A stretch of 63,228 nucleotides of DNA, filler included, from 3 parts of 3 records of this genome joined end to end with filler, not necessarily neighbours in it, one strand, 5' to 3'; numbered from the whole stretch's first letter, positions 6,707 to 63,055 are shown. Notes: generated by a model not told the origin, from the sequence alone. Program-made: numbers and translations.

Positions 6707-7619
6707 TCCTGATTATTGGTCCCTACTTGGGATCCGTCCCGATAGCGATGCTGCGCAGCTCAAACGAGCCTTCCGTCGGGAAGCGCGACGTTGGCATCCG
6801 GATCTCAATGGAAATGATCCCGTTGCCGAAGAGCGATTCAAGCTCGTGAATGAGGCATATGCGGTTCTCAATGACCCACGACGACGGGATGCATGGCAGC
6901 GGGGTGCTGGTGTTGTAGAGGCCGATGACGACCCGTTCACAACAGGTTTTCCTGATTTTGAGGATTACCTCGATGTGATTTTTGGAAGGCGAGAACGTCG
7001 TGAAGACGCTGCTCCTGAACCTTTATCTGACCCCGAGGTGATGCCCTGGCAGACAGGTGATAGCCATGTGTCCTCAGAGCGGCCCGTGGCAGCACCCGCA
7101 CCACCACCGCCTGTTCTGGCCGTTGAAGATCTTGAATCTGTTGTGGAGCTCACCCCAGACCAGGCTCTACTGGGTACCCAGGTGGAACTCTCCCTTGGCG
7201 ATGGAACGCTGATTCAGCTCGATACCCCACCCTTTGCCGGTGATGGCTGGCGCTTGCGTCTCGAGGGGGTGGCTCCGGGTGGGCGAGATCATTTTTTGCA
7301 GCTTCGCGTCATCACTGAAGACGGTCTGCGTGTTGATGGTTTGCGGGTGCACTACAAATTGGAACTTTTCCCCCCTGATGCGGCCCTCGGCTGTGCCGTT
7401 GATGTGCCCACCCTGGATGGCCCTGTCACCTTGCAGGTTCCTCCTGGTTCCTCGAGTGGTCGGCTTTTACGTCTGCGGGGGCGGGGCCTATCCATGGATG
7501 AGCAACTGGGGGACCAGTTGGTTGAAGTGGTGGTGGTGATCCCGTCGGACTTGGGAGAAGATGAACGGGCGCTCTATCGGCGCTTGCAGGAGCTAGCGCT
7601 CGAATCTGAGATCCAGTGA
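6690..7619 (+). CDS. dnaJ: DnaJ-class co-chaperone (J domain + C-terminal domain, no Zn finger)
   Basis: DYWSLLG...WHPDLN...FKLVNEAYAVL; C-terminal VPTLDG...RLRGRG. Confidence 0.9.
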   Translation: MTSTANPDYWSLLGIRPDSDAAQLKRAFRREARRWHPDLNGNDPVAEERFKLVNEAYAVLNDPRRRDAWQRGAGVVEADDDPFTTGFPDFEDYLDVIFGRRERREDAAPEPLSDPEVMPWQTGDSHVSSERPVAAPAPPPPVLAVEDLESVVELTPDQALLGTQVELSLGDGTLIQLDTPPFAGDGWRLRLEGVAPGGRDHFLQLRVITEDGLRVDGLRVHYKLELFPPDAALGCAVDVPTLDGPVTLQVPPGSSSGRLLRLRGRGLSMDEQLGDQLVEVVVVIPSDLGEDERALYRRLQELALESEIQ

Positions 7620-7697
7620 GGTATTCGCACCTCTGAGGATGCATGCATTCGTGGGTCGGTGAGAGACTCCGCTCCAGATCGGCTTGTTGGTTCAGGG

Positions 7698-9977: not shown

Positions 9978-10039
9978 CGCAATCCTTTCGACGCCGATAT
10001 CTTGCCGTGTTTCTAAACTGCAGCTTTGCTCGCGCCACC

Positions 10040-10483: not shown

Positions 10484-10500
10484 TTGCCTTGGCGCCGGCG

Positions 10501-43354: not shown

Positions 43355-43385
43355 TACGTGAACTCTCCCGTTCGATTTACCCTAT

Positions 43386-44653: not shown

Positions 44654-45429
44654 GACACCTCTCCTTGTCGAAGGTTATCAAGCAGCGGCTTGAACCCCTC
44701 TTCGCCAAGCCAATATTTCACTAAGTTGTCGACCCCTTTGGTCGTCAACGTCGCCCCAGACAAGCCATCCACCTGCCACTGGGCTTGAGCTGACCCCGCG
44801 CGAACGGAGCCCTTCAGCACCTCAATCGCCACCTCGTTACCCTGATACACCAACTTACCGGGCCAGATCGACTTCCACCGAGGGTTGTCCACTTCTCCGC
44901 CCAATCCAGGGGTTTCACCGTGCTCATAAAATCCAAGGCCCGCAATGGTATTACCATCTGACTCCAGCGCCATAAATCCGTAAAGCGTGCTCCACAGGCC
45001 ATAGCCTCGGATCGGCAAAATAATCTTATCCAGCTCACCGCGATCGGTGCGCACTAAATAAACCAGCGCCTGATCCTCGCGCCGCACCAACTTAGCCGCA
45101 TCTTTATCGTTAGGGATTGCCCGGGACTGAGCAGGATCTTTAGCCGCCTCTCGCTGGTCAAAACTTGCGGGATCGACGCCCTCGACAAATTGTCCTGCGT
45201 CTAAATTGACGATCCGCGTTTCTACCTGTTCAAACTGCTCTTCCACCGATCGCGAGGGATCTAACAGCCCAGCCGCCATCAGGATGTTTCGCTTGAGATC
45301 GAGTGTTTTATTCGCCTGTTGGGCGGGTTTGAGGAGCACCGCTGCCGTGGACACTACGATAGAACAGACCAGGCATAACCCAAGCGCCACCGTCAAAACA
45401 CGTCCGAGCCCTTCTCCATTAGCTGACAC
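44650..45429 (-). CDS. nqrC: Na+-NQR subunit C
   Basis: [29 protein letters not shown] site. Confidence 0.96.
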
Positions 45430-46618
45430 GGGCAGCCCTCCTCTTCATGTTGGCACTCACGACAAAGTGGTCAAATAGTGGGGCGAAAAGATTGGCAAAC
45501 AGAATTGCCAGCATCATCCCCTCGGGAAAAGCCGGATTCACCACCCTAATCAGCACACACATCACACCAATCAGAATTCCATAGGCCCATCGACCCGAAT
45601 TGGTCATCGCTGAGGAAACAGGATCGGTCGCCATAAAGAAGGCGCCAAATGCGAATCCCCCTACCACCATATGCCAATGCCAAGGCATCGCAAAAGCGGG
45701 ATTAGAGTCGGAGCCCACCCCATTTAACAACAAACTGAAGCCAATGAGGCCCGCAAAACAGCCCGCTACCACACGCCAAGAAGCGATGCCTTGCACCAAC
45801 AGAAACGCACCACCGATCATAATCATGAGCGTTGAGGTCTCCCCTATTGAGCCGGGAATGGTGCCAATAAAAGCATCCCACCAGGTGTAGGCCTGCGTCA
45901 GACCGGCCATGCCCTCTTGCGCAACCACACCCAGCGGCGTCGCCCCGGAATACCCATCCACCGCCGTCCAAACGGCATCGCCAGAAATCTGCGCCGGGTA
46001 GGCGAAATACAAAAAGGCGCGTCCGGTGAGGGCGGGATTCAAAAAGTTTTTGCCGGTGCCACCAAAGACTTCTTTGCCAATCACTACGCCAAAGCTAATG
46101 CCCATTGCCGCTTGCCACAGCGGAAGATCTGGCGGCAACGTCAAAGTGAATAAAATAGAGGTGACAAAGAAGCCTTCATTCACTTCGTGACCACGACGCA
46201 TCGCGAAAAGAACTTCCCAAAAACCACCGACAATAAAGGTCACGAGGTAAAGCGGTAAAAAGTGCACGAGGCCGTACAGCATGTTGTGCCAGCCGTTCGC
46301 GGGATCGTGTCCGCCTAGTGCGGCCACCAAGCCACCACGCCACCCGTCCAACACTCCGCCGGACAGCGCCAAGACATCATTGGCCTGTAATCCGAGGTTA
46401 TACATTCCGTAGAACATAGCGGGGAATGTCGCAAACCATACCGTGATCATAATGCGCTTGAGATCGACCCCATCACGCACATGCGCATTAGCCCGCGTCA
46501 CGCTATTGGGTGAGTAAAAAATGGTATCGACCGCCTCATACAAGGCATACCACTTCTCTAAACGGCCTCCTGGCTTGAAGTGAGGCTCCATCGCATCTAA
46601 CTGTTGTCGCAGTCCCAT
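45419..46618 (-). CDS. nqrB: Na+-NQR subunit B
   Basis: [33 protein letters not shown] site, FMATDPVS. Confidence 0.96.
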
Positions 46619-46621
46619 GTC

Positions 46622-47965
46622 TTAGCCCTCTTTTTCGATGCGCGTCAGGTTGTCGCGGAGAATGCCGCCATACTCATACTTACCCGGACAAACATAGGTG
46701 CATAGCGCAACATCTTCCTCATCTAATTCAAGACACCCCAGCGCCTGAGCGGTCTCCGTATCGCCGACCAGCAATGCTCGTAATAATTGCGTTGGGAGAA
46801 TGTCGAGTGGCATTACTTTCTCGTAGGCGCCCACAGGAACCATCGCTCTCTCTGAACCATTGGTCGACGTCGACATCGCCAGAGGCTTGGTGCCGAACCA
46901 ACTAGATAGGTAGATGCCCAGCACCGAATGCTTTCGGCGCCCCAGAGACAGCCACCCCATAAAGGGTCGTTCTCTGCCCTCGGGCAAGAGGGCCACCTGC
47001 TGGTGATACCTACCCAAATAAGCCGTACCGCTCTGCACTGCGCGTCCCCCCAGGACTGATCCTGAGAGCAACCGTGCGTCCGCATCCGTCTGCTCACCCG
47101 CAACCAGCGCCTGTAAATCCGCGCCGACTCGGCTGATAATCAAGCGTGGCCGACTGACCGAGGGCCCCGCAAGCGATATCACTCTGTCCGTGTACAGCGC
47201 ACCGTCGAGGAACAAGCGTCCGATGGCGATGACATCTTGGTATCCCACCGTCCAGGCAATCCTCTCTAACGATGCACCCATCAAAAAATGCACATGGGTT
47301 CCCACCAAGCCCGCTGGGTGTGGCCCACTAAAGTCATGCCGCGTTAGCCGCGCATGCTGGCTTTGTGGCATATCCGCGCCAGGTGCCGCACACAGATAAA
47401 CAGGGCACTCGACCATCGCGGCCAATAACTCCTGACCTAGCAGAAAAGCATCCGGCTCTCTCGCAATGGCGATCTCAGGATCCGGTGCATGCGGGTGGGT
47501 ATCAATCGCCGTAATAAAAAGCCCCTTCGGCGAAGTCTGTGGATCTGCGACCCGACCGAAAGGTCGCGCTCTGAGTGAGGTCCACTGACCCGACTCCAAC
47601 AACCGCGCCTTGATGGCAGCGGGCGTGAGTGCACGTGCCTGCTCCGCTGAATGACGCTCAAAAGGTACTGCCTCATCCCCCTCAATCTCGACCACGACCG
47701 ACTCGAACACGCGCTTCGCGCCGCGGTTAACTGCCGCGACCCGACCACCCGCTGGCGAGGTATACCTGACGCCTTCGCACTTTTTGTCCGTAAATAATAA
47801 ATCGCCGCGCTTGACGACATCGCCCGCCTGCACCGCCATCGTGGGTTTCATGCCCGGGTAGTCATCTCCGAGTAGCGCGACCGCTCGAACAGTCACCGAC
47901 TGATCCAGCTCGCTTGCCGGGGCGCCAGCAAGGGGGATACTTAAACCTTTCTGAATTTTTATCAT
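46622..47965 (-). CDS. nqrA: Na+-NQR subunit A
   Basis: MIKI.KGL, GMKP.M.V, GPHPAG, LSGSVL.G, ELDEED.ALC..VCP.K. Confidence 0.96.
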   Translation of the reverse strand: MIKIQKGLSIPLAGAPASELDQSVTVRAVALLGDDYPGMKPTMAVQAGDVVKRGDLLFTDKKCEGVRYTSPAGGRVAAVNRGAKRVFESVVVEIEGDEAVPFERHSAEQARALTPAAIKARLLESGQWTSLRARPFGRVADPQTSPKGLFITAIDTHPHAPDPEIAIAREPDAFLLGQELLAAMVECPVYLCAAPGADMPQSQHARLTRHDFSGPHPAGLVGTHVHFLMGASLERIAWTVGYQDVIAIGRLFLDGALYTDRVISLAGPSVSRPRLIISRVGADLQALVAGEQTDADARLLSGSVLGGRAVQSGTAYLGRYHQQVALLPEGRERPFMGWLSLGRRKHSVLGIYLSSWFGTKPLAMSTSTNGSERAMVPVGAYEKVMPLDILPTQLLRALLVGDTETAQALGCLELDEEDVALCTYVCPGKYEYGGILRDNLTRIEKEG

Positions 47966-48239
47966 GTCAGTGCTCATCTGTCTTTCCACCAAATATGTAG
48001 CGCACGATCTTTCTGCCGCGGCATAAAAGCCTTCGCCTCACGCTCGCCGCTGACACTGTCGTATTCGGGGAAACACCCCCCCAGACTGTAATAATGGTAC
48101 TGCAGACCGGGGGCTTCTTAAGGCCGGGCCCGTAGGGCTCTAAACGGTCGCCCGTATTCTATTCGACTTGGCCACCCAAGGCCAACCCGGGGCATAGATC
48201 CCAGCGTCAAAAGTGCACAAACAGCGCCGATCATTGGTT

Positions 48240-49724
48240 TTAAAGAGGATAAGGGCCCTTCTCGGGATACGTCTGATAGCGAATACCTGCCATACGCTCA
48301 AGAATCCGGTACACCTGACAGCTATACCCATATTCATTGTCATACCAGAGATACAGCACCGCCTGCGTGCCGCTGACGATTGTCGCTTTGGCATCAAAGA
48401 CACAGGCAGCGCGCGAGCCGACAAAATCGCTCGACACCACCTCTGGGGAATCGGAATAATCGATTTGCTTTTTCATGCTCGAATGCAGAGCGATGTCCCG
48501 CATAAATTCGTTGACTGCCTCGCGTGTGGTGCTTTGCTTCAGCGTCAGATTCAAAATCGCCATTGATACATTAGGCGTGGGCACGCGAATCGCGTTACCG
48601 GTCAACTTGCCCTCTAGTTGCGGGAGCACTTTGGCAACCGCTTTAGCGGCCCCTGTCTCAGTTAACACCATATTGAGCGGCGCACTGCGCCCTCGTCGCT
48701 CAGCCTTGTGATAATTGTCGATCAAGTTTTGATCATTGGTATACGCATGCACCGTCTCGACATGACCCGCCGTAATCCCGTATTCGTCGTCGGCGGCCTT
48801 GAGCACGGGCACAATGGCATTGGTGGTACAGGACGCCGCAGAGATCACCGTGTCTGTCTCCTCGATGGCGCTCTCATTAATGCCCGCAACAATATTCTTC
48901 ACATCACCCTTGCCCGGGGCCGTTAAGATGACCTTGGCGACGCCTTTGGCCGCTAAGTGCCGTGACAATCCCGCTTTATCGCGCCATACGCCCGTATTAT
49001 CGACGACGATGCCGTCCTGAATACCGTACTGGGTGTAGTCGATGTCCTCTGGCGCGTCTGCGTAAATCACCTTGACTTCGTTTCCATTGGCAATGAAGGA
49101 TTGGCGCTCTTCATCGACCCGAATGGTGCCCTTGAAGACGCCATGAACCGAGTCTCTTCGCAACAAACTCGCTCGTTTCAATAAATCGTCTTCGGCACCG
49201 CCTTTGCGCACCACGATGGCTCGCAGACGCAAGCTGTCGCCGCCATCGGTCTTGGCAATCAGAATCCGCGCCATCAATCGGCCTATACGGCCAAAGCCGT
49301 ATAAAATGACATCGACGGGCTTATCAACGGGCTTCTGCGTCGCACCCATCAAATAGGCGAGTTCTTGGGCACAATATTCTTCAATGGAGAGGCCCTCTCC
49401 CGCACCTTTATCGTAGTACGCAACGGCAAGCCGCCCGATATCGAGGTGACAGGGGCCAAGATCGAGCTGACTGACCGCATTTAATACCGGAGCAGTCTCG
49501 AATTCGGATAATTCATTGGCTTCAATCTGACGCACCCAGCGGTGCGTCTTCATGATGTCGAGAACCGACTCGTTCACAAGGGAGCGCCCGTAAATGTAGC
49601 ATTTGACATTGCGTTCACGAGATAGGCCACCCACGATCGGAATCATGGCTTCCGCTAGTGCCTCGCGCTCCTTCCAATCAGAAAAATAATCGCCAGGGCG
49701 GGGTCGCTTGCGTTGTTCTGTCAC
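48240..49724 (-). CDS. gap: glyceraldehyde-3-phosphate dehydrogenase, long type with N-terminal extension
   Basis: YGFGRIGR, ASCTTN, NAIRVPT, WYDNE; about 130-aa N-terminal extension as in the gammaproteobacterial paralog found next to nqrA and mfd. Confidence 0.93.
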   Translation of the reverse strand: MTEQRKRPRPGDYFSDWKEREALAEAMIPIVGGLSRERNVKCYIYGRSLVNESVLDIMKTHRWVRQIEANELSEFETAPVLNAVSQLDLGPCHLDIGRLAVAYYDKGAGEGLSIEEYCAQELAYLMGATQKPVDKPVDVILYGFGRIGRLMARILIAKTDGGDSLRLRAIVVRKGGAEDDLLKRASLLRRDSVHGVFKGTIRVDEERQSFIANGNEVKVIYADAPEDIDYTQYGIQDGIVVDNTGVWRDKAGLSRHLAAKGVAKVILTAPGKGDVKNIVAGINESAIEETDTVISAASCTTNAIVPVLKAADDEYGITAGHVETVHAYTNDQNLIDNYHKAERRGRSAPLNMVLTETGAAKAVAKVLPQLEGKLTGNAIRVPTPNVSMAILNLTLKQSTTREAVNEFMRDIALHSSMKKQIDYSDSPEVVSSDFVGSRAACVFDAKATIVSGTQAVLYLWYDNEYGYSCQVYRILERMAGIRYQTYPEKGPYPL

Positions 49725-49925
49725 AGGGGATCCTCTTGTTGTGATGCCACCCGCGAGGGATGGCGCTTTGGCCTAGCTCTAACCGTCCATCGACGGTTAG
49801 AGTGCAGTGTCGCTCGGCATTATCGGAGTTGCAGGCCTGCCGAGGCAACCTTTTAACGCACTATTTCGGTGGTGACTGGACGCTCGGGTGCCTACAATAC
49901 CCCTCTCTACCCTGTGACCCTTTGC

Positions 49926-52396
49926 ATGTTTACCCAACTCCTCAGTGACACACCCTGGCCTGGCAAGGTCGGCACTCGCACTGCTTTAGGCCCCATGCCG
50001 GGCGCTGGCAGCACAGCGGCCGTCGCGGAGCTGGTAAGCTTAGGCAGGCCGCTGATCGTCATCGTCGCCAGTTCTGCAGAGGCGCAAACACTTGAGCGAG
50101 AGTTACCGCTTTTCTTGGCCACCGACGTCCCCGTATTAACACTGCCCGATTGGGAAACACTCCCCTACGATCATTTTTCGCCGCACCAAGATATCGTGTC
50201 GCAGCGACTGCGAACCTTCTTCGAGTTGCCACAGTTAACCGATGGCATCGTGATCCTACCGATCACCACCGCCATGCTCAGGACGCCGCCTCAATACTAT
50301 ATTGAAGGCAATACGCTAGACCTGAGCGTCGGGCAAACTTTTGATTCAGAAGCCTTCGCCACCCGGCTAACCTTAAACGGCTATCGAGCGGTTGATACGG
50401 TCTTCGAGCATGGCGAGTTCGCCGTCCGAGGTGCGCTGCTCGATGTCTTTCCAATGGGCAGCGAGTCGCCTTATCGTATTGACTTACTCGACGATGAAGT
50501 CGAGACCCTGCGCACCTTTGATCCCGATACGCAGCGCACTATCAATCGCGTTGAACAGATCAAGCTGATGCCCGCCAGAGAATTCCCAATGAGCCGCGAC
50601 GCCATCCATCGTTTCCAGATGGCTTGGTACGAGGCGTTTGAGGGTGACGCCGATCTGTGCCCCGCATTCACTGAAATTAGCGCAGGCCGGGTGCCCGGCG
50701 GGGCAGAATGCTATCTCCCGTTATTTTTTGAACAATGCGGAACCGTCTTTGATTATCTTCCAGCCGATACGGCCATGGTGCTCCTCGGTGACCATTACAG
50801 CGCTGCGCAGCGCTACTGGACTGAAATCACCAGTCGCTTTGAAGAATACGGAATTGATCCGCGACGACCACTGCTACCACCTCAACGCGGCTTCGTTTCC
50901 GTAGAAGAAATTTATGCGGCACTGGGTGCGTATTCGGTGCTCGAGCTCAAGCCCGACGATCGCTCACCCGCGCATGTGCGGACCAACCTCAAAATACCAC
51001 CATTGCTGGTCAGCGATGACGGGGCGGGAGGAAGCTATCAGCAAAAGTTAGTGCGGTTCATCAGTGATCATCAAGGTCCTCTGCTGCTCTGCGCCGAGAG
51101 TGCGGGTCGGCGCGAGATCTTGCTGGAAACGCTCGCGAAAGTGGACCTGACCCCCACCGCGGTCGACAACTGGCCTGAATTCGTGGCGACTGGCGTCCTG
51201 TTTGGCATCAGCACCGCACCGGTCGATCGAGGACTTTACAGCGGTCCGGGGCAGCCCATGCTCTTGTCCGAAGCACAGATATTTGGTCAGCGCGTCGCGC
51301 AACGACGGCGCCGGCATAAGCGAATCGAAACAGATGCTGATGCCATCATCCGAGACCTGACTGAACTGCGGCAGGGTCTGCCGGTGGTTCACATTGAGCA
51401 CGGAGTGGGTCGCTACCTGGGCCTGCAAGTCCTGCAAATTGACGGTGATGATGCTGAGTTTTTGCTGCTCGAATATGCCGAGGGCAACAAACTGTATGTG
51501 CCAGTGAGCTCACTGCAGCTGATCAGTCGATACACCGCCGGCGACCCCGACACCGCGCCCCTTCATCGACTCGGTACTGAGCAGTGGGAAAAAGCCCGTC
51601 GAAAAGCCCGTGAGCGCGCGGCCGACGTGGCCGCACAGTTACTGGATGTCTATGCGCGGAGAGAAGCACGGAAAGGGCATGCCCACTCATTAGACGAGAC
51701 CAAGTGGGAACAATTTTGCGCCGCTTTCCCGTTCGAAGAAACGCCAGATCAAGCCGCTGCCATTGATGCCGTCCGCAACGATATGTGCGCGCCGCAGGTA
51801 ATGGATCGACTCGTTTGCGGCGATGTCGGCTTTGGCAAAACCGAGGTCGCCATGCGTGCCGCGTTTATCGCCGCACAAAATGGACGCCAAACCGCCGTGT
51901 TAGTTCCGACGACATTACTGGCTAATCAACATCATACGAATTTTCGTGATCGCTTTGCCAGTTGGCCCTACTCGGTAGAGGTCGTATCGCGCTTTCAGTC
52001 AGCGAAGGATCTTCGCGATATCGTCGATCGCGTTAGCGCAGGCAAAATTGATATTCTTGTGGGGACGCATAAGCTCCTGCAAAGCGACTTTGGTTTCCAC
52101 GATCTCGGTTTGCTCATCATCGATGAGGAGCACCGCTTCGGTGTCAAACAGAAAGAAGCGATCAAAGCACTCCGTGCTGAGGTCGACATCCTGACAATGA
52201 CCGCAACCCCCATCCCCCGAACACTCAACATGGCGCTCGGCGGCTTGCGAGATCTGTCGATCATTGCCACGCCACCGGCACGACGGTTATCCATCAAAAC
52301 CTTTATCAAAGAGCACAGCATTGCCCTGATCAAAGAGGCCGTGTTGCGCGAGACGCTGCGTGGCGGCCAAGTGTTCTATCTACATAACGAAGTCAA
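49926..52396 (+). CDS. mfd: transcription-repair coupling factor (3' end cut by contig end)
   Basis: PDWETLPYD, GEFAVRG, VVH..HG.GRY, CGDVGFGKTEVA, DEEHRFG, TATPIPRTL. Confidence 0.97.
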
Positions 52397-54839: not shown

Positions 54840-54923
54840 AAGATTTGGCCTAAAAAACTAACCTCGAAATTTCTACATCCCAATCCCGAGTATAAACTTA
54901 CCCATCATTTTATCATGCCTGTT

Positions 54924-55712
54924 CTAAATACATTTTATCGACAGATGCATAGTTGTGAAGCCTGAGAACACCGCACTCCATCCTTCACCTGGTAAAATTG
55001 GCATTGCATCAGTAAGAGTGCCTGTAGTCACAACATCTCCAGGTTTTAATTCTGGCTCACCGTTGTGATTTTCGATACCTTTTTGCAAATATTTCAATGC
55101 AGAAATGGGTCCATCAAGCACGTTGCTTCCTAGCCCCTCTTCCCTGATTTTATCATTTAGAAATAATTCAACACTAATTGAATTTAATATTTCTTCTAGA
55201 TTTTCAGGAGGGTCATATTTCTGCCCCACGATCAATCGACCATGCAATCCGCCCGAGATGATAGTGTCTTCTAAAGCGAAATCCCAATTTGGATAAACAG
55301 AATCTACTATTTCAAAACCGGGTGCTATCCATGCGACACAATCCACGATGTCACTTATGGATGGGCTTTGAGGGATAGCTCTATTCAGTCCTAATACAAT
55401 TTCAGGCTCTAACCGCGGTTCACAAAATCCTGACAGATTTACCGTCACCTGATTTTCAGACGCATATTCTATCGTTTTATCAGTTATCACGCCCCAAATA
55501 GGTTCATGAACATTATAAATCGGCCAAATGGATCGGTTGGTAAAACCAATCTTACGCCCCAGCACATGACCGCCTCTCATCGTCGCGACTTCTCTGGCAA
55601 CAGCGTATGCCTCTTCCTGGGAAAATCGAATTCCTCGCTTCGAAAAAGGTTCAATCTGCGCTGCAGAGTTTAAAGACCTAAAAATTTCAGAGGCCGCCTT
55701 CTGTATTTTCAT
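54924..55712 (-). CDS. 2-keto-4-pentenoate hydratase-like protein (FAH superfamily)
   Basis: AY.V, GRKIGFTN, PRLEPEI, FEIVDS, NVLDGP, GDVVTTGT. Confidence 0.87.
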   Translation of the reverse strand: MKIQKAASEIFRSLNSAAQIEPFSKRGIRFSQEEAYAVAREVATMRGGHVLGRKIGFTNRSIWPIYNVHEPIWGVITDKTIEYASENQVTVNLSGFCEPRLEPEIVLGLNRAIPQSPSISDIVDCVAWIAPGFEIVDSVYPNWDFALEDTIISGGLHGRLIVGQKYDPPENLEEILNSISVELFLNDKIREEGLGSNVLDGPISALKYLQKGIENHNGEPELKPGDVVTTGTLTDAMPILPGEGWSAVFSGFTTMHLSIKCI

Positions 55713-55809
55713 ATCCACACCTAACGTTGTCTCAAAGAATGGCACAGTTAATTCTAAAGCCCAATCAAGTTTTATTATTACAAGCCAGGATTAACTACTA
55801 AAAAATCAA

Positions 55810-55888
55810 TTGCACAAAACCTGCAAACCTTTTCTTACAATTTGCACAAAACCATCATTCTAGCTGCAAAACATCCAATCATAACATG
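55810..55888 (+). promoter_or_regulatory. phased TGCA direct-repeat operator array, copy 1
   Basis: TGCACA 55811, TGCAAA 55822, TGCACA 55843, TGCAAA 55865; TTGCACAAAACC occurs twice; TAACAT at 55882. Confidence 0.7.
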
Positions 55889-55889
55889 A

Positions 55890-55988
55890 GCGTCAGAAGA
55901 AATCTGACGCAAGTTGGGCCCTTCCTACCGGCCTCATAACTTCCCCTGGCGGCGTAGTTTTAGGTCGCACGCAGTCAGGGGCTTTTTT
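55890..55988 (+). ncRNA. candidate three-hairpin small RNA 1 ending in an intrinsic terminator
   Basis: Stem GCGTCAGA/TCTGACGC; stem AAGTTGGGCC/GGCCT..AACTT with loop CTTCCTACC; stem CCCCTGGC.GCGT/ACGC.GTCAGGGG followed by T6. GC-rich island in AT-rich DNA. Confidence 0.65.
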
Positions 55989-56017
55989 CATCCTGACCTA
56001 GTGATTGGAGACCTATT

Positions 56018-56215
56018 ATGAAGACTATGATTTCAACAGTAGCATTGATTTTGTTGGGTTCAGCAGTTGTTGCAGGCGTGATGCCGGAAGACATTTTGCC
56101 TGAAGTGACTGATATGTCCACGAAGTCGATGCCGATTGAGACAACATCAGAGATCGCGGATGAACCACATCCTTTTATGCACTTCTTAACATATGTATTT
56201 CTGATATTAATTTAG
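56018..56215 (+). CDS. small exported protein (signal peptide, acidic middle, hydrophobic C-tail)
   Basis: GGAG RBS at 56007; MKTMISTVALILLGSAVVA signal; FLTYVFLILI tail. Confidence 0.7.
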   Translation: MKTMISTVALILLGSAVVAGVMPEDILPEVTDMSTKSMPIETTSEIADEPHPFMHFLTYVFLILI

Positions 56216-56343
56216 CGATAAAATCAGGGGCCCTAATGGAATAAAATTCATTTCAATTGGAGCCCCTTTTCATACCCTTGAAATTTTTAACAGCGTTACC
56301 AAATACGGGTTCGTAAAAAGGAAAAACAGACTTGGAGTTTGAA

Positions 56344-56592
56344 ATGTTAAACTTCGACAAAGGCGATGGCCTAATAAAAGAAATCATGAATTCCACAGAC
56401 CCAATAAGTGTGGTTCGGCAGCACGTGCTTAAGAATGGCGGCTTTTGGAATGACACCGATAAAGTAAATAAATCCGCCATTTTTGAAATTCATCTCTATG
56501 GCGTCAGGGGCATTGGCCTGGGAGCAGATGAAGCGTTGAAGAACTGGCTAGTTAGCGCCAGAAACTCTTTGGAAAACTCCAGACAGTGCTAA
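56344..56592 (+). CDS. small hypothetical protein
   Basis: GGAG RBS before ATG 56344; DP...R..VL..GG.W and FEI.L.G..G.G.....W pattern reminiscent of a Rhodobacterales conserved hypothetical family. Confidence 0.65.
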   Translation: MLNFDKGDGLIKEIMNSTDPISVVRQHVLKNGGFWNDTDKVNKSAIFEIHLYGVRGIGLGADEALKNWLVSARNSLENSRQC

Positions 56593-58148
56593 GCTTTTAG
56601 CGATATTGAAAACTTCGCGCCCCCTTGACGTACATTACTTACAGATACTTTGCCGCCATGGGCGTCAACGACCTGCTTCACAATAAACAAACCTAATCCT
56701 GAACTCGCATCCTCTTCTGCGGTGCCTTCACGATGGGTGAAAAATCTTTCAAAAATTTTATCTAGCTGTTCTTCTGGAATTCCTGGCCCTGTGTCTTCCA
56801 CAGACAGAGTAAGATCCTTCATCCAGCGCCTCTTTAAAGAAATTGTAACTGTGCCTCTTGGCCTAGCAAAGCTAATCGCATTCTCGATTAAGTTGATGAC
56901 CACTTGTGCAAAACGATCCGGCAAACCAACAAATTGTATATTTGGTGCAATATCAGACATTATTTTCACGCCCGGAGTAGCTTTGGCTTCACGGAAATGA
57001 TCAACAAGATCATTGAGTAGAACCGACAGGTTGAATTGCTCCCTCTTGGCTGCCACGAGCTCATGATCAACTGTTGCTGCCTCTGATATTTCACTAACAA
57101 GCTTGTTGATCCGAATTGCTTGTTTCTGAATGGTTGTTATAGTGCCCTGCACCTTTTCCTGATCATTCAGATTGCCTTTTATTACTTCGGTATGCGCAAT
57201 AATTGAGGAAACCGGATTTTTGATCTCATGGGAAATATCAGCAGCAAACCGCTCTTTATCCGCAAAGATGCGCGCTAAATTATCATTCAACTTTATGAGG
57301 TTTTTATAGACCAAACCAATTTCATCTTTGCGCTTCTCAAGGCTTTGGATTCGAAAATCCGTAAGGTGCTGCGCCACATCATCAGATGTCAGTTTTTTGT
57401 TTAACCGCCTTGAAAGCCGTCGCAACGGAAACGCCAATGAAAAGGCAAAGACCGAACCGATTAATAAAGTTATGCCCGATAATCCAATCAAAACCCACAG
57501 ACGCGCATTGTTATCTTTTAGATATATCTCACGCAGGTGATACGCATCTTTTAGATCCACAATAGCGATTGTCTTTTTGTCAAACTTAATCGGCATGGCA
57601 TATCGTAATTCATACCCATCCGCATTTGCTTCAATCAGGTGGTACTGCGCAGAAAATCTTGCTCGACGATACATGATAGGATCAGTAAGCAGGTTGAAAT
57701 CCACTAATCTCTTATAAGAATAAAACAAAAGCTCCGCAATTTTCGGTAGCTTAGGTTGCTCTGCCAGTTTTGGCCCTTCTGATATAATTTCAGAAACAAT
57801 AATTTTGCTTTTCCGATAAGGATTGTTAGTTTGAAAAAATGCAAATCCATCATCGTTGACCTCATCAATGAAGAAGGGACGGATTTCTAAAGCATCCGAC
57901 AAAACCGTATCTAGTTGATTGAGCGTATTGGTAATCTCAATCATTTTATCAAAACGGCTCAAATCTGTTCTAAGCAATGTGGGTTTCACGATTTCAGAAA
58001 CTAGAACACCTTGAGAATATAACGCGCTGCGTTTGTTATTAATTTCAGAGTAAGCCGTATCCTCGGTCAAAAAGATAAATGCCCAAAGCGCCGCATTTAT
58101 AACGATCAGGATAATAAATATCTTTACGAAGATACTGCGGAACACCAT
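56589..58148 (-). CDS. sensor histidine kinase, ChvG/ExoS-like paralog
   Basis: Two TMs around a periplasmic domain, HAMP (RKDEIG), FAADISHEIKNP H-box, NLIENAISF, DTGPGI, SGLGL. Confidence 0.92.
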   Translation of the reverse strand: MVFRSIFVKIFIILIVINAALWAFIFLTEDTAYSEINNKRSALYSQGVLVSEIVKPTLLRTDLSRFDKMIEITNTLNQLDTVLSDALEIRPFFIDEVNDDGFAFFQTNNPYRKSKIIVSEIISEGPKLAEQPKLPKIAELLFYSYKRLVDFNLLTDPIMYRRARFSAQYHLIEANADGYELRYAMPIKFDKKTIAIVDLKDAYHLREIYLKDNNARLWVLIGLSGITLLIGSVFAFSLAFPLRRLSRRLNKKLTSDDVAQHLTDFRIQSLEKRKDEIGLVYKNLIKLNDNLARIFADKERFAADISHEIKNPVSSIIAHTEVIKGNLNDQEKVQGTITTIQKQAIRINKLVSEISEAATVDHELVAAKREQFNLSVLLNDLVDHFREAKATPGVKIMSDIAPNIQFVGLPDRFAQVVINLIENAISFARPRGTVTISLKRRWMKDLTLSVEDTGPGIPEEQLDKIFERFFTHREGTAEEDASSGLGLFIVKQVVDAHGGKVSVSNVRQGGAKFSISLKA

Positions 58149-58837
58149 CAGTCGGCTTTCAACTTATAGCCCAAACCATGGACTGTCGCGATTATGGAAC
58201 AGTCTTCATCGCTAGACTTAAGTTTTTGGCGAATATTGCGGACATGGCTGTCTATGGTCCGATCTGTCACATGAATGGCACCTGCATAAGCTGCATCCAT
58301 GAGCTGACTGCGGCTTTTCACCAAACCGGGTCGTTCTGCCAAAGCTGCAAGCAAAAGACATTCTGTAACTGTAAGATCTATCGGAAACTCCCTCCAAGAT
58401 ACCAAATGGCGACTTTGGTCTATGACCAAATCGCCCGCAATAATCTGAGAAGATTTGCCCTTAACCGAGGCATCAACATGGCGACGCAAGACCGCAGCAA
58501 CGCGCGCCAGTAAAAGGTGTTTACTAAAAGGTTTGGTTACATAATCATCAGCGCCAAGCGTAAAACCTATGATTTGGTCTTGTTCTTCATCCTTTGACGA
58601 TAGAAAAATGACAGGTAGGTTGGACTTAATCACTCTGAGTTCTTTTAAGAGATCATAACCACTCATTTCCGGCATTTTAATATCGCAAATTGCCAATGCA
58701 ATTTCGTTTCTTTTCAAGTGGCTTATCGCCTTAAGAGGGGAGCCAAAAGCGTCTATGCGATAACCCTCTGCCTCAAGCATAGATTGCAACGGGTTTAAAA
58801 TTTCCGGTTCGTCATCAACAATCATCAGTCTTTGCAT
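58148..58837 (-). CDS. OmpR-family response regulator, ChvI-like paralog
   Basis: DD, DIKMP, PVIFLSSKDEE, GADDYVTKPFS; ChvI-like LTVTE..LL.ALA.RPG.VKSR.QLMDAAY and DRTIDSH; TGATG overlap with the kinase. Confidence 0.93.
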   Translation of the reverse strand: MQRLMIVDDEPEILNPLQSMLEAEGYRIDAFGSPLKAISHLKRNEIALAICDIKMPEMSGYDLLKELRVIKSNLPVIFLSSKDEEQDQIIGFTLGADDYVTKPFSKHLLLARVAAVLRRHVDASVKGKSSQIIAGDLVIDQSRHLVSWREFPIDLTVTECLLLAALAERPGLVKSRSQLMDAAYAGAIHVTDRTIDSHVRNIRQKLKSSDEDCSIIATVHGLGYKLKAD

Positions 58838-58854
58838 CAAATTAGCTCCATCAC

Positions 58855-58989
58855 TTTGTGCAAAACTGGCACAGACTCATGAGTATCTCAAAGTGAAATA
58901 ACGCTTCTGCACATATTCTGCATAATCAATCACACTAACTGCAAATATCTCTCAAACTGGCTGCACATGTCTCTGCCAAACATTTCACA
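58855..58989 (+). promoter_or_regulatory. phased TGCA direct-repeat operator array, copy 2 (divergent promoter region)
   Basis: TGCACA 58908, TGCATA 58919, TGCAAA 58940, TGCACA 58962 (same spacing as copy 1); AAACAT at 58978; extra TTTGCACAAA on the minus strand at 58855-58864. Confidence 0.7.
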
Positions 58990-59095
58990 ACAGGTCGAGG
59001 CATCGATCTGTCGAGCAGAGCGAGTTGTAGGTTCCTCTCCCTTTACGGCTTCGCTCCTAGCCCTGGTGGTCTCCCCTCCCAACCACCGGGGCTAG
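58990..59095 (+). ncRNA. candidate three-hairpin RNA 2 with anti-SD loops (AbcR/cuckoo-like sRNA or structured leader)
   Basis: ACAGGTCGA-GGCA-TCGATCTGT; GAGCGAGTTGTAGG-TTCCTCTCCC-TTTACGGCTTCGCTC; 14-bp stem CTAGCCCTGGTGGT-CTCCCCTCCCA-ACCACCGGGGCTAG. Confidence 0.72.
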
Positions 59096-59116
59096 TTAAC
59101 CAAGAAAGGAATGAAA

Positions 59117-59200
59117 ATGGAGACACTTCAAATATTCACAGCTGGAGAAATCTTGTTCTTCATTGCAGCCGCAGGTTTGTACATTTGGGGATCCAAATGA
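59117..59200 (+). CDS. 27-aa single-TM small protein (not in the ORF track)
   Basis: AGAAAGGA RBS; METLQIFTAGEILFFIAAAGLYIWGSK; the stop overlaps the next ATG (ATGA). Confidence 0.6.
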   Translation: METLQIFTAGEILFFIAAAGLYIWGSK

Positions 59201-59481
59201 ATAATCTGCCCAAGAAACCTGAAGCCGAGACCAAAGTAGCAGTGAAGTCAAAAAAATATTCAATAAAACAGCATCAGCTTTATCTGATGATTTTTTTGGT
59301 CGTATTTTTCTCCCTAATTGGACTTTCAGCCTTCGCCTCACCAGGCGTTGAATGGAAAGAAGAAGTGGACGATTGGTGGGAGAGCATCTTCAGCCGTCAG
59401 AGCCATCCGCAAAAACTCATTGAAGGAAATAGATTCTATTCTCCTCAGAATGCTTCAATTGAAATTCCACCGCAGAACTAA
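59197..59481 (+). CDS. small membrane/exported hypothetical protein
   Basis: Basic N-terminus, hydrophobic segment ending AFA (possible signal cleavage site); translationally coupled to the upstream small ORF. Confidence 0.6.
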   Translation: MNNLPKKPEAETKVAVKSKKYSIKQHQLYLMIFLVVFFSLIGLSAFASPGVEWKEEVDDWWESIFSRQSHPQKLIEGNRFYSPQNASIEIPPQN

Positions 59482-59526
59482 AATTTTTGCACGTGTTTTC
59501 TAATCTTCAAAAAAAGGAAATCAAAA

Positions 59527-60258
59527 ATGAAACCTATTTTCAAAACTATTTCAGCTGCTTTATTGTTTCTTGCAAGCGCAGTTCAATCCGAAGAAGCCAA
59601 ATTTAAGATTCAGGGTGACACCCTATTTTACAGCACTGAAGACGAAGGAATTACAAAGGATTTTGTAAGTATTTCAGACGCTTTACATTTCCGGACCATA
59701 TTACATGATAATCCTGAAATTCTGCGTATTAACCTCTACTCATATGGCGGGCATGTAGAGGCCGGCTTGGAAATAGCGCGTATCGTCAGTGACTTTGAAA
59801 TAGACACTGAAATTTCAAAAGAATGCTCTAGCGCCTGTGTTCCTATATTTTTAGCAGGACAGAACCGCGTACTTAAAAAAGGAGCATTGATCGGGTTCCA
59901 CCGCCCTAACTGGCAGCAGGATTCGATGGAACGTTACTATGATGCCAAAAAGGAAGACTTCGGCTGGAATACGCCATTTGAATTTTCAAACTGGGTTCAA
60001 AAGGACACGTTCGAAGTCGCAACGCAGCTCTATGATAGATTTTCTCAAGCTGGAGTTGCACCCGAATTCATATCTCAAGCCTTCAAATATGACATTGAGC
60101 AAATGTGGTACCCTTCGCGCACCGAGCTTGTGAATTTTGGTGTGGTAAATCTGGTTGAGCTAGCCGCCATGAGGCCCCCTACCCGTCCAACAAATATTAA
60201 AAAAATCGAAGACGCTTTTCAAGAAGTGCAGATCAGTCAACTCGAAGAAACCGAATGA
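59527..60258 (+). CDS. exported ClpP/crotonase-like fold protein (COG3904-type)
   Basis: Signal peptide; L.S.GG.V..G..IA, C.SAC..IF.AG..R......IGFH motifs; AAGGA RBS. Confidence 0.75.
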   Translation: MKPIFKTISAALLFLASAVQSEEAKFKIQGDTLFYSTEDEGITKDFVSISDALHFRTILHDNPEILRINLYSYGGHVEAGLEIARIVSDFEIDTEISKECSSACVPIFLAGQNRVLKKGALIGFHRPNWQQDSMERYYDAKKEDFGWNTPFEFSNWVQKDTFEVATQLYDRFSQAGVAPEFISQAFKYDIEQMWYPSRTELVNFGVVNLVELAAMRPPTRPTNIKKIEDAFQEVQISQLEETE

Positions 60259-60291
60259 TTGAACATCAAATTTCTTAACAGGATCAAACCT

Positions 60292-60839
60292 ATGAAACTT
60301 TCTCATGGTACTTTTCATTACTCTTTTCGCCCGTTACCGCTGATGAAGGCTCAGTTTCTCCAAGCATATGGGAATTTACGATAGAGCCTAAGCCAATGAT
60401 TTATAAATCTGGCAATGTGACCTATGGGAACCGATTGTTCATGTTGCCGACTGATGATTGCGGCGTGCGAATACATGCCTGGTTCACATCTTACAACAAA
60501 GAGGCTCTCAAAAATCTTGAGGGCCAAGATATAGAAATGGATGTGGTTATCCTTGAAGATGAAAATAACTATCCACTGATGAATGAAGCCTATCTTGAGT
60601 ATGTTCTTGATCCCAGCTTTGGCGACTTAGATCTTCTGTTCTCAATTGCTTCTTTTCGATTAGGAAACCTTAACAGCGCCGAGACTTTGCTTAATTGGGA
60701 AGATATGGGCGCAACTGGTTTCCAGATGACAGCCCCTTCTGACGAAGTATTTGACGTACCTGTAGAAAGTTGGGACTTTTCAGGCTTTAGGCCGGCCGTG
60801 CAGGAATTGCTGACTTGGTGCAAAAGCAACCAAGCGTAA
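60292..60839 (+). pseudogene. exported hypothetical protein with an apparent 5' frameshift (intact ORF part 60396-60839)
   Basis: AGGA RBS and ATG at 60292 are out of frame by 1 nt with the open frame that encodes ...SLLFSPVTADEG... into 60396. Confidence 0.5.
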
Positions 60840-60878
60840 ATCATCCATTATCCAAATCAAACTACTCTGGAGGTTTTC

Positions 60879-61541
60879 TTGAAACGAAAGCTCATACTGC
60901 TTTTTGCGAGCATTTTTACCTTTTGCGCCATAATATTCTTCTTCGTTCGTGATGAAGTTCGAGACTTTATCATTGAGCAGCAACTTGAAACTCAAAGAGA
61001 CGCTGAAAATGCAGGGCTGACTTGCGTACAAAAACTTGAAAAGAAAGGCGTGGAGTTTGTAGCGTTACAGAAATTTGGAAAGCCTAAATGCACAGTCAAA
61101 GAACCGGTTCGAATTGAAAATTACCCCACAACCAAACTTTCTGGTCCGGTTACATTAAATTGTACGACAGCACTCAACCTTGCAAATTGGCTAGATGAAA
61201 TCGGCGCTAATGAAGTTGAACATTTTGGATCTTATAATTGTCGCACCATTCGAGGCAGCTCGATTATGAGTCAGCATAGCTATGGATCGGCCATTGATAT
61301 CGCCAGTATTAACGGAGCCTCTGTTTTATTTGATTGGGCAAATACGGCTGAAAAGTCGGAGTTTCTCAAAAATGCCGGAAAAACAGCCTGCAACCATTTT
61401 TCAAATGTCCTCACGCCGGATTACAATCTGGCGCATAAAGATCACTTTCATCTTGATGACGGGTATTTCTCAGCATGTAAAAAACCAACTGATACTAAAT
61501 TAACAGCGGCAATGAAGAGATTAGTACGGCATATATTTTAG
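60879..61541 (+). CDS. extensin-like C-terminal domain protein (M15/DD-peptidase-like fold), membrane-anchored
   Basis: GGAGG RBS with TTG start; HFGSYNCR, SQHSYG.AID, VL.PDYN.AH.DHFHLD. Confidence 0.85.
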   Translation: MKRKLILLFASIFTFCAIIFFFVRDEVRDFIIEQQLETQRDAENAGLTCVQKLEKKGVEFVALQKFGKPKCTVKEPVRIENYPTTKLSGPVTLNCTTALNLANWLDEIGANEVEHFGSYNCRTIRGSSIMSQHSYGSAIDIASINGASVLFDWANTAEKSEFLKNAGKTACNHFSNVLTPDYNLAHKDHFHLDDGYFSACKKPTDTKLTAAMKRLVRHIF

Positions 61542-61737
61542 GATAAAACTTCATTTAACTTCTGCACCTATTTCCCACATCGTACTTGTCTAAATTTTGC
61601 ATCATTCCGATGGACCAAACGCAAACCATGCAATAACAAGCAGAGAGGCCAAATGTATAGCGCCTGTCTTAGACACTTTTAATCTCTACACGCGAACTTG
61701 ACTAATAAAAACTCAAAGCACGGTATCTAAATAATGA

Positions 61738-62949
61738 ATGCAGTCGCTCATTAAAATGAATTTATCTGCATTTAACTTTAGAGACTTTCGTCTCTACTTG
61801 CTGGGAAATCTATTTGCGATAAATGCACTTTGGATGCAACGAGTTACAATTGGCTGGATTGCTTGGGATCTTACAAAATCAGCTACTTTTGTAGGATTTG
61901 TAGCATTCATAAATTTTGCTCCAGCGATTATCACAGGGCCTTTATTTGGGGTTCTCATCGATAGGGTGAATGTAAAAAAAGCCGCTCAAGTGACACAGTT
62001 TAGTTTGTTCACAATTTCTGTTGGGTTTTATCTTTTTTTCCTTTTCGGGGGGCTCAATGAGTTATTTCTTTCTGTGCTCTCGCTATTATCGGGAATAGCC
62101 ACCTCTGCGCATAATCCAGTAAGATTATCGTTAGCACCAAGGCTCGTTAATCACGGATCGGTTTCCTCGGTTGTCTCAGTTGTTGCTATCAATTTCAATT
62201 TAGCAAGGTTAACGGGCCCCGCAATTGCCGGGTGGCTAATTGCGGTTTGGGGTTTGCAAATTACTCTGCTCGTCCAAAGCTTGTTATATTTACCCTTTAT
62301 ACTGATGTTAAACCTTTTACATCCTCGAGATCAGGTGCCCCTTAAGGCTGGCAAAGAGCCTTTTGGGGCGGCCCTACGTTCAGGCGTGAAGCACACGCTC
62401 TCTAATTCTTTAATGCGACACGCCCTTTTAATAACGAGCCTCTATGCTTTTCTAATTCGAGGAACTTTAGAAATTCTTCCAGTAATTGCTGATGGTATTT
62501 TCGCAAAAGGCGCTGCTGGCCTTGGAATACTGACATCAATTGCTGGATTTGGTGCAGTCGTTGCCGGGATAACAAAAGTATTCACTCAAAGCCAAAAAGC
62601 AGGAGAAATACCAAAATTTGTGATCGCCAGCGCATTGCTTGGGTTAGCGCTTATTCCGTTAGTCGGACTTTCAAACACATGGGAGTTAACAGTTGGATAC
62701 ATCTGCTACTTAGGATTTGCTGGAACTCTATCCGGCATTTCAATCCAAACAGCGCTTCAAATGGATTTGCCTGATAACTTTCGAGGACGCGTTATGAGCC
62801 TTTGGACGGTGGTCAATGTAGGTGCTACTGCGACAGGAGCGATGATTTTGGGGGGATTGGCCGATTATATTGGAATTCCAACAGCGTTCTGTTTCGCCGG
62901 GGGCCTTGGCACAGTGCTTTTAATAACGGCGGTCCTAAAAAACCGATGA
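61738..62949 (+). CDS. MFS transporter (MFS_3 / H+ antiporter-like)
   Basis: F..RDFRLY..G...WMQ, G.L.DR, FNLARLTGPAIAG, RGRVMS; about 12 TMs. Confidence 0.9.
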   Translation: MQSLIKMNLSAFNFRDFRLYLLGNLFAINALWMQRVTIGWIAWDLTKSATFVGFVAFINFAPAIITGPLFGVLIDRVNVKKAAQVTQFSLFTISVGFYLFFLFGGLNELFLSVLSLLSGIATSAHNPVRLSLAPRLVNHGSVSSVVSVVAINFNLARLTGPAIAGWLIAVWGLQITLLVQSLLYLPFILMLNLLHPRDQVPLKAGKEPFGAALRSGVKHTLSNSLMRHALLITSLYAFLIRGTLEILPVIADGIFAKGAAGLGILTSIAGFGAVVAGITKVFTQSQKAGEIPKFVIASALLGLALIPLVGLSNTWELTVGYICYLGFAGTLSGISIQTALQMDLPDNFRGRVMSLWTVVNVGATATGAMILGGLADYIGIPTAFCFAGGLGTVLLITAVLKNR

Positions 62950-63055
62950 GCCTGCAATAATTTATGAAATAACACCTAAACACAAACAAACTTTAGGGGA
63001 AGAGATCCACCAAGGTACGATCTATCACCTAATAATTTTCTGAACCGAATCGCCA

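Follow-up and report, generated by a model that had tools for sequence, protein, structure and literature searches.

In a stretch of 63,228 bases of alphaproteobacterial DNA (the window; all positions are those of the whole window), we found a two-component system, encoded on the − strand, that is flanked by two + strand units, here called unit 1 and unit 2, with unit 2 divergent from the regulator gene. We believe that this is probably an orphan OmpR-family system that activates the two adjacent promoters via phased TGCAC half-sites, with the RNAs of the units being structured 5′ leaders and their cargo being small envelope proteins. We observed directly the features of the sequence, that these are conserved and occur together, and that RNA libraries contain the stretch. 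The features that carry the argument are listed below (aa, amino acids; nt, nucleotides).

56589..58148, − strand, histidine kinase of 519 aa with HisKA and HATPase_c domains
58148..58840, − strand, OmpR/PhoB-family response regulator of 230 aa with Response_reg and Trans_reg_C domains; likely start ATG 58837
55811..55868, + strand, putative operator array of unit 1; TGCA at 55811, 55822, 55843, and 55865 (11-bp phased TGCAC-type half-sites)
55880..55885, + strand, −10-like hexamer CATAAC of unit 1, a putative promoter element, 11 nt past box 4
55888..55989, + strand, structured 5′ leader of unit 1; three stems, apical loop CUUCCUACC, last stem followed by T6
56018..56215, + strand, 65-aa protein of unit 1; signal peptide, acidic middle, hydrophobic C terminus
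58908..58965, + strand, putative operator array of unit 2; TGCA at 58908, 58919, 58940, and 58962, plus TGCC at 58974
58990..59097, + strand, structured 5′ leader of unit 2; two C-rich loops, no U-run, end 14 nt from the start codon
59111..59200, + strand, tiny hydrophobic peptide of 29 aa (27 aa from ATG 59117); stop overlaps the next ATG (ATGA)

Phased TGCA arrays adjoin the kinase/regulator system

The four TGCA boxes are spaced by 11, 21, and 22 nt, identically in both arrays. When the four-box pattern was searched on both strands with at most one mismatch, exactly two matches were found in the 63,228 bases, the two unit arrays; 100 shuffles of the window gave a mean of 0.00 and a maximum of 0. 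An earlier note on this DNA had claimed two four-box arrays of identical spacing, and this was borne out. In the 4.6-Mb metagenome-assembled genome (MAG) G459, the full array was present three times, each time adjoining a copy of the kinase/regulator system. It was not present in the genus genomes G001, G005, G012, and G015, all of which are without the system.

Our collection scans returned L022 and L065, which are near-identical (98%), plus nine diverged loci (L066 to L074), with kinases 39 to 49% and regulators 58 to 69% identical to those of the window. Sequence upstream of the regulator was available for seven independent lineages: the window group, L068, L069, L072, L073, L074, and G459-C42, a further copy in G459. 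Every one of them has TGCA boxes divergent from the regulator. The exact four-box array was found in L068, L069, and G459-C42 besides the window group, boxes 1, 2, and 4 are kept in L072 and L074, and L073 has boxes 2 and 4 only. Six of the seven lineages have boxes 1 and 2 as an in-register, 11-bp tandem divergent from the regulator; L073 does not. The unit 1 array is kept in L022/L065.

Nine promoters were anchored on box 1 and aligned without gaps. Box 1 was present in 8/9, box 2 in 9/9, box 3 in 5/9, and box 4 in 8/9, with half-sites at +1 and +12, a weaker T.CAC at +23, and further half-sites at +33/34 and +55/56. Helically phased direct repeats of about 11 bp, as expected of an OmpR/PhoB-family operator, were therefore found across the aligned promoters, and since the sites recur every 11 bp, they would lie on the same helix face. 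The arrays stay in register across loci whose kinases share only 39 to 49% identity. In the window, L069, L072, L073, and L074, 24 to 25 nt separate box 4 from the first RNA hairpin downstream, and box 1 lies 64 to 71 nt from the regulator start codon in all lineages. The layout is that expected for an OmpR/PhoB-type activator site that would also lie within the system's own divergent promoter region, and binding by the adjacent regulator is strongly suggested.

The tandem itself, written as YTGCAM-N5-YTGCAH, precedes the regulator in the window, L022, L065, L068, L069, L072, and L074. It also precedes the L072 analogue of unit 1, with boxes 1 and 2 kept. The background was three matches in 2,066,644 nt of unrelated loci. 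This tandem-only pattern matched 21 times in G459, where about 13 were expected from the background rate; the 18 matches outside the three arrays are without boxes 3 and 4 and fall mostly inside long open frames. Because these are around chance level, they give no evidence of further regulon members. TGCA clusters at L066 and L070 were considered as the same operator and ruled out, as these are TGCAACCGGTTGCA palindromes, unrelated to TGCAC direct repeats. They occur in pairs upstream of a 410-aa open reading frame (ORF) converging on the kinase (L066 3182-3272 and L070 2724-2823).

The pair belongs to neither CreBC nor ChvGI

Pfam assigned PF00072 (E 2.4e-28) and PF00486 (E 5.1e-19) to the regulator and PF00512 (E 1.3e-12) and PF02518 (E 2.2e-28) to the kinase, which is the domain set of an OmpR/PhoB-family two-component system (receiver plus Trans_reg_C; HisKA plus HATPase_c). 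The kinase has two transmembrane (TM) segments and a periplasmic domain of about 190 aa, followed by HisKA and HATPase_c. A model of the periplasmic domain, of moderate confidence (pLDDT 69), was nearest to the extracellular PAS/Cache-like domain of WalK (Foldseek E 1.6e-3, TM-score 0.44 to 0.60). As a lead only, the domain may be PAS/Cache-like, after WalK.

The earlier note had called the pair ChvG/ChvI-like, which our comparisons did not uphold. The best NCBIfam model for the kinase was ChvG (NF058527), but with 181.9 bits versus a cut-off of 740 and over residues 184-517 only; the second best was CreC (165.2 bits versus 356). The regulator was nearest to CreB (200.4 bits versus 273), with the “marine sortase system” regulator, BaeR, and PhoB next. 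No best NCBIfam model for either protein reached its cut-off, PhoB models included. Sensor_TM1 (PF13755) was not found in the window kinase, where only HisKA and HATPase families match. With the CreB, CreC, and ChvG cut-offs all unreached, the pair is a member of neither family. It is probably an accessory OmpR/PhoB-family system whose family is uncharacterised and lies as far from CreBC as from ChvGI.

The kinase family is rare and comprises about 36 protein clusters (P0001-P0036), mostly from marine metagenomes, at E 6.6e-88 or better. Matches cover 94 to 100% of the length except for P0035-P0036 (56 to 69%), and a gap follows to the canonical ChvG-type kinases at E 2.5e-43. PF13755 draws the same line, being absent from P0001-P0036 and carried by proteins from P0037 on. 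A better ChvG-like kinase (384.6 bits) is encoded at G459:C35:1462146-1463246, on a large contig of that MAG. Genomes G001 and G005 have no ChvG-like kinase above 89 bits.

Three known systems offered comparisons. At pho boxes, PhoB occupies tandem 11-bp phased direct repeats that replace the −35 region, with several boxes in a row. The window arrays share the phased tandem repeats and the several boxes, but they have another half-site and no tie to phosphate genes. CreBC (BlrAB) is alike in its OmpR-family regulator, with CreB the best regulator model and CreC the second-best kinase model, and in that the main target would be an adjacent inner-membrane protein gene. It differs in that the window locus has no CreD-type gene, carries arrays of up to four or more phased boxes, and includes a structured leader RNA plus tiny peptide, for which we know of no CreBC parallel. 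An excerpt of PMC4689548 gives the cre/blr tag upstream of creD as TTCAC-N6-TTCAC, a pentamer direct repeat with an 11-bp period. The window repeat has the same architecture and spacing, but its pentamer is one letter apart, TGCAC instead of TTCAC. By analogy, the operator of the pair may work most like that of CreB.

ChvG/ChvI (ExoS/ChvI, BvrS/BvrR) is alike in that ChvG is the best model for the kinase core, that one source labels an identical-family protein ChvG, and that the window host is an alphaproteobacterium. It also sets the precedent of a two-component system directly activating both a regulatory RNA and genes of the envelope; according to an excerpt of PMC9731502, ChvGI activates the small RNA (sRNA) ChvR. 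The ChvI motifs published in that excerpt are TTGC-N3-GCAA and GCC-N8-GCC, whereas the window boxes are TGCAC-N6-TGCAC direct repeats, and the window RNAs probably are leaders ahead of ORFs.

Probable structured leaders follow the arrays

Both arrays are followed by an RNA of about 100 nt with strong predicted folding. The unit 1 RNA (55885-55992) folded at −43.9 kcal/mol (z −4.60) and the unit 2 RNA (58985-59100) at −54.7 kcal/mol (z −5.76), with 0/200 shuffles as good in either case. Both stretches are GC maxima (0.55 and 0.59) of a 7-kb region that is otherwise 0.31 to 0.51. C/U-rich loops are CUUCCUACC in unit 1 and UUCCUCUCCC and CUCCCCUCCCA in unit 2. The GC-rich, folded RNAs with C/U-rich loops that the earlier note had placed after the arrays are therefore there. 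Its view of them as free-standing sRNA genes is not supported: contigs run into the unit 1 ORFs, and the unit 2 RNA is a 5′ untranslated region without a terminator. Unit 1 RNA ends in a hairpin plus T6, and unit 2 RNA, having no U-run, continues directly into the ribosome-binding site of the tiny ORF. The U-run at 55983-55988 varies, from T6 in the window to T5 in X18 contigs; L022/L065 have TTTTG.

The 5′ part of the unit 2 leader, ACAGGUCGAGG...CUGUCGAGCAG, is common to the orthologues, and the stretch ACAGGUYGAGG...CCUGUUGAGCA downstream of box 4 is shared by the window, L069, L072, L073, and L074. A structured leader with a C-rich CUCCC-type loop was present in these last four, i.e., in four of the six non-window lineages. 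Their RNAalifold consensus has three hairpins and 24 pairs, 6 of which show compensatory changes. The third hairpin of the consensus carries a UCUCCC-like loop, the first two are without a C-rich motif in the orthologues, and the window version of unit 2 has one extra C-rich hairpin inserted. The leaders of L072 and L073 reached z-scores of −5.8 and −7.6. The earlier note had proposed that its reading would fail if homologous loci lacked the boxes and RNAs; the tandem recurs in 6/7 lineages and the leader in 4/6 non-window lineages, an outcome that favors the idea of a regulon.

Unit 1 has an analogue in L072, where a box tandem precedes a 127-nt RNA (7808-7682) and a 67-aa homologue of the 65-aa protein. 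This RNA has the same three-stem layout, ends in a stem plus U-run, and has a z-score of −3.57. A GmrSD_C/HNH nuclease-like gene (L072 6880-7461, + strand) lies between the kinase and this analogue.

In an Rfam 15 scan, which the earlier note had asked for, no family (ar7, ar14, ar15/AbcR, sX13, and others) reached its gathering threshold in the window. The best sub-threshold matches of the unit 2 leader were sX13 (21.3 bits versus 50) and ar7 (19.9 versus 60). A scan of the orthologous loci gave nothing relevant. We also built a covariance model, R1, from the four orthologous leaders (L069, L072, L073, and L074); with default filters, it found only its own four training sequences in 161,480 bases. 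Both window RNAs are best read as 5′ leaders, which may control translation or stability or be the source of a processed sRNA.

RNA-library contigs cover both units

The locus is present in many seawater DNA runs and in six metatranscriptome runs, four of which were compared as Logan contigs (X14, X15, X16, and X18). An X15 contig at 55901-56619, preceded by adapter, and an X16 contig at 55902-56670 span the unit 1 RNA, the hairpin, the U-run, and both ORFs. A further X15 contig starts at 55895. These starts lie 10 to 17 nt downstream of the CATAAC hexamer, which is a weak hint that transcription starts just downstream of it. The earlier note had predicted a start near 55890, and the contig beginnings at 55895-55902 lend it that same slight support. 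A terminated sRNA would have its transcript end at the hairpin plus U-run; the X15 and X16 contigs pass 55988, with partial stops being invisible to contigs. Contigs from two studies thus continue past the hairpin and U-run into the ORFs, a fair indication that the unit 1 RNA is at least partly a leader, and we read it as one.

The unit 2 genes are covered by contigs 59179-61494 (X15) and 59224-61257 (X16). The stretch 58854-59047 is uncovered by the X15 and X16 contigs, from which we draw no conclusion. An X14 contig joins 56222, the end of the 65-aa gene, directly to box 3 of unit 2, at 58948. This suggests a relative without the 86-aa ORF, the kinase, the regulator, and boxes 1 and 2.

A probable tiny membrane peptide is conserved across lineages

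A hydrophobic ORF of 23 to 38 aa follows the leader position in all seven lineages. The 29-aa peptide of the window is 100% identical in L022/L065 and has counterparts in L068, L069, L072, L073, L074, and G459-C42. Across the seven lineages, the window included, the C-terminal regions read YIWGSK, YLFYDH, YLFGNL, YLWG, TVWAEQ, and SIWPEQ, and L073 (38 aa) has YLWYKF internally. In the window, L072, and L074, stop codon and following ATG overlap, and in L069 they are 4 nt apart. A comparison of L072 with L074 shows 10 identical codons, 6 with synonymous differences, and 8 with nonsynonymous ones; length and frame are kept. Judged on these comparisons, the tiny ORF most likely encodes a real small membrane protein. 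A complex prediction of kinase residues 1-270 with the 29-aa peptide scored 0.02 versus a mark of 0.34, the partner being below the calibrated length.

MgrB/PhoQ, SafA, and SamT are described in excerpts of PMC8404706 and PMC13425233 as small membrane proteins that are induced by or act on a sensor kinase. The window peptide is similar in being a very small single-TM peptide beside, and presumably controlled by, a two-component system. It differs in having no sequence relation to them and in that its gene would be translationally coupled to an exported protein.

The 65-aa protein of unit 1 has no Pfam or NCBIfam match. Its L072 homologue (7665..7462) gave a Smith-Waterman score of 65 versus 24.3 ± 4.6 for shuffles, with 0/2000 as high; BLASTP finds no match between the two. 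The remaining ORFs of the units are as follows.

56332..56592, + strand, 86-aa ORF of unit 1, function unassigned; overlaps the kinase stop codon
59185..59481, + strand, 98-aa single-TM protein; likely start ATG 59197
59527..60258, + strand, 243-aa exported protein; ClpP-like by language-model look-alike only
60259..60839, + strand, 202-aa exported protein, its gene broken by a 28-nt deletion at 60316; remaining ORFs 60259..60384 and 60396..60839
60879..61541, + strand, 220-aa Extensin-like_C protein (Pfam E 2.9e-33; weak Peptidase_M15_4, E 0.0021)

The earlier note had described downstream small envelope proteins, and these ORFs are present; it had left out the 86-aa ORF and the disrupted 202-aa gene. 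Its extensin-like peptidase agrees with the Extensin-like_C match. Its ClpP/crotonase-like label for the 243-aa protein fared less well: its closest cluster in ESM-Atlas is labelled “Clp protease family protein” (score 0.97, a lead only), and no Pfam or NCBIfam family matched. The 86-aa ORF was found elsewhere only in L022/L065.

In L022, which is 98% identical, the counterpart of the 98-aa protein (window 59185-59527) is the N-terminal portion of a Sel1-repeat protein of 544 aa (4331-5965, − strand). About 1.4 kb is absent from the window, and X15 and X16 contigs share the short form. The 28 nt missing at window 60316 are present in L022 and in X14, X15, and X16 contigs. Their loss, which severs the signal peptide from the 202-aa exported protein, is either a strain-specific lesion or an assembly error. 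Genes behind the tiny ORF differ between lineages. Homology of the exported proteins between lineages was not established (BLASTP E 0.52 and 0.005, the latter for a short motif only), and the C-terminal motif that some of them seem to share is suggestive only. For the L069 exported protein, IalB turned up only at E 0.14.

The locus is strain-variable

Of the genomes compared, G001 comes nearest; it matches window 43229-52396 at 99%, up to the end of its contig. The DNA of 54900-62950 had no match in 61 genus genomes, and the locus is therefore strain-variable. The whole right part of the window beyond 52396, locus included, is without a genus DNA match, which points to a variable region. A kinase-family profile (A3) had no match in 401 order genomes or in 400 class genomes, with one further genome not scored; as a positive control, it found G459 at E 1.9e-221.

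A contig scan of genomes gave L022 as the sole close relative among 43 loci. Regulator matches in 41 relatives reached no more than 43% identity. Of their loci, the six best (L001-L006) of 20 fetched are without a kinase orthologue and were therefore rejected as orthologues. The MAG of L022 holds a second regulator/kinase copy (L166, G459:C42:24000-42000, at about 9650-12000) with several frameshifts and stops. This G459-C42 copy comes with an exact four-box array of its own and with a 27-aa peptide, and it is without a structured leader. It may be a pseudogene or a long-read assembly error, and the contig may come from another binned organism.

Weighing of alternative explanations

Several observations weigh against our proposal. 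That the adjacent regulator binds the arrays is presumed from their co-occurrence and from the habit of the family, and a promoter scan listed neither unit promoter, the CATAAC hexamer included. The leaders of L069 and L074 are no better than about 5% of their shuffles (z −1.75 and −1.91). In L068 and G459-C42, only a short, unstructured leader lies between array and peptide, which makes the structured RNA dispensable in these two. Model R1 ranked the unit 2 RNA as its top match in the 7 kb, weakly (9.1 bits, E 0.19), and did not find the unit 1 RNA there, which lends no support to the paralogy of the two RNAs put forward in the earlier note. Only nine diverged loci were available, which makes the covariation statistics thin. 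Unit 1 adjoins the system only in the window group and L072, and small proteins other than the tiny peptide and the 65-aa protein are not conserved across lineages. Contigs cannot show transcript ends, strand, or level, and RNA libraries may contain DNA.

The RNAs could be stand-alone, trans-acting anti-Shine-Dalgarno sRNAs whose C-rich loops block target ribosome-binding sites in the manner of cuckoo/CcsR, AbcR, and sX13, with termination (unit 1) or processing (unit 2) setting them free. Excerpts of PMC4615179 and PMC8034643 define cuckoo (ar14/CcsR) RNAs by two to four adjacent hairpins, each loop with CCUCCUCCC (PMC4615179), and report their co-transcription with a small-protein gene (both). 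The window RNAs share the adjacent hairpins and C-rich, anti-Shine-Dalgarno-like loops with these and with Xanthomonas sX13 (RF02232), and share with CcsR the co-transcription with a small-protein gene, which together with ChvGI-activated ChvR (in the excerpt of PMC9731502) makes a precedent. However, they lie 5′ of the ORFs, not 3′, and are without the defining loop motif: with at most one mismatch, CCUCCUCCC had 14 matches in the window, none within 55,800-59,100, and was absent from both RNAs. Duplex energies of both RNAs against 8 local and 50 background start regions made no target stand out, except the tiny ORF's own region, which overlaps the RNA. The loops stay UCUCCC-like in L069, L072, L073, and L074, the GC stem plus T6 of unit 1 looks like an end, and sX13 and ar7, the sub-threshold Rfam matches, are both C-rich-loop sRNAs; against this stand the contigs of two studies that pass the unit 1 hairpin, the U-run that is not kept, the missing terminator of unit 2, and the failure of any Rfam family to reach threshold. 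We therefore regard this explanation as unlikely. It keeps some weight because partial termination or processing could release the RNAs, although nothing requires it.

A somewhat better but still doubtful prospect, which overlaps the proposal of regulator-driven leaders, is that the leaders are cis-acting switches (an attenuator, a thermosensor, or a ligand- or protein-responsive element) with no trans role. Inspection and duplex energies gave no anti-terminator fold and no conserved pairing of the C-rich loop with a downstream Shine-Dalgarno sequence, and no Rfam riboswitch matched. Nonetheless, each leader sits directly between promoter and ribosome-binding site, the terminator-like stem 25 to 30 nt ahead of the start codon is read through in unit 1 and the L072 analogue, and the third stem of L073 sequesters the AGGAGGAG stretch.

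The boxes themselves allow two other explanations. The sigma-54 consensus is TGGCAC-N5-TTGCW, and the TGCAC-N5-YTGCA tandem resembles this −24/−12 element in letters and spacing save one base per half. We find it hardly credible as a sigma-54 type promoter rather than a regulator site, because the GG of the −24 element is present in 0/9 promoters, there are up to four phased boxes and not one pair, and RNA contigs start some 70 nt past box 2 rather than about 12 nt past it. The adjacent regulator is also OmpR-type, not an enhancer-binding protein. Slightly less remote, but still very improbable, is that the boxes are the operator of another, unlinked regulator or a promoter-associated repeat unrelated to the pair. 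TGCA is palindromic and common; yet the G459 arrays lie only beside copies of the system (3/3), the four genus genomes without it have none, and the register holds across loci with such diverged kinases.

Proposed mechanism and meaning

In the regulator-driven leader model that we favor, the kinase would sense a periplasmic cue through its PAS/Cache-like domain and phosphorylate the regulator, dimers of which would bind head to tail to TGCAC half-sites phased at 11 bp. The array would be a class II activator site, as for PhoB at pho boxes and CreB at the cre tag, because the promoter-proximal half-site lies 24 to 25 nt upstream of the first hairpin, just before the −10-like hexamer. Given its similar distance from the regulator start codon in every lineage, box 1 may also autoregulate the kinase/regulator operon. 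Unit 2 would be the conserved core, in which a leader of about 100 nt with CUCCC-type loops precedes the tiny membrane peptide, itself probably coupled translationally through the ATGA overlap to exported proteins of lineage-variable identity. Unit 1 would be an analogous leader followed by the 65-aa exported acidic protein and the 86-aa protein. We infer binding, activation, the signal, and the roles of the RNAs and peptide from the features described above. An envelope-stress signal, as in the earlier note, is likewise something that we infer only.

We also considered a three-layer module of uncultured marine Alphaproteobacteria, in which regulator-driven leaders would, through partial termination or processing, release C-rich-loop riboregulators that silence Shine-Dalgarno-rich mRNAs and the co-transcribed peptide of 23 to 29 aa would feed back on the kinase like MgrB on PhoQ. 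We hold this to be quite improbable, more so than the sRNA explanation. If it were true, one operon would deliver transcriptional, post-transcriptional, and sensor-level control.

Two-component systems with a regulon beside them, operators made of direct repeats, structured leaders, and small membrane peptides are an already known kind of locus. A search, not exhaustive, of the literature on ChvI motifs, the cre tag, kinase-acting small proteins, and CCUCCUCCC RNAs did not find this system. Neither the literature searched nor Rfam 15 describes the kinase/regulator family, its operator, or the leader motif.

Taken together, the sequence alone defines an uncharacterised two-component family with a likely TGCAC-N6-TGCAC operator, a minimal regulon, and a non-Rfam leader motif. 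Since the regulon is tiny and lies beside its regulator, the whole circuit of two promoters, two leaders, and one peptide is directly testable. Without trans action, it would be a clean but ordinary orphan OmpR-type system; should the RNAs or the peptide prove to work in trans, the system would offer layered control in compact form. As the locus is strain-variable in an abundant marine lineage and present in many seawater metagenomes and metatranscriptomes, it may serve as a marker of an accessory envelope response.

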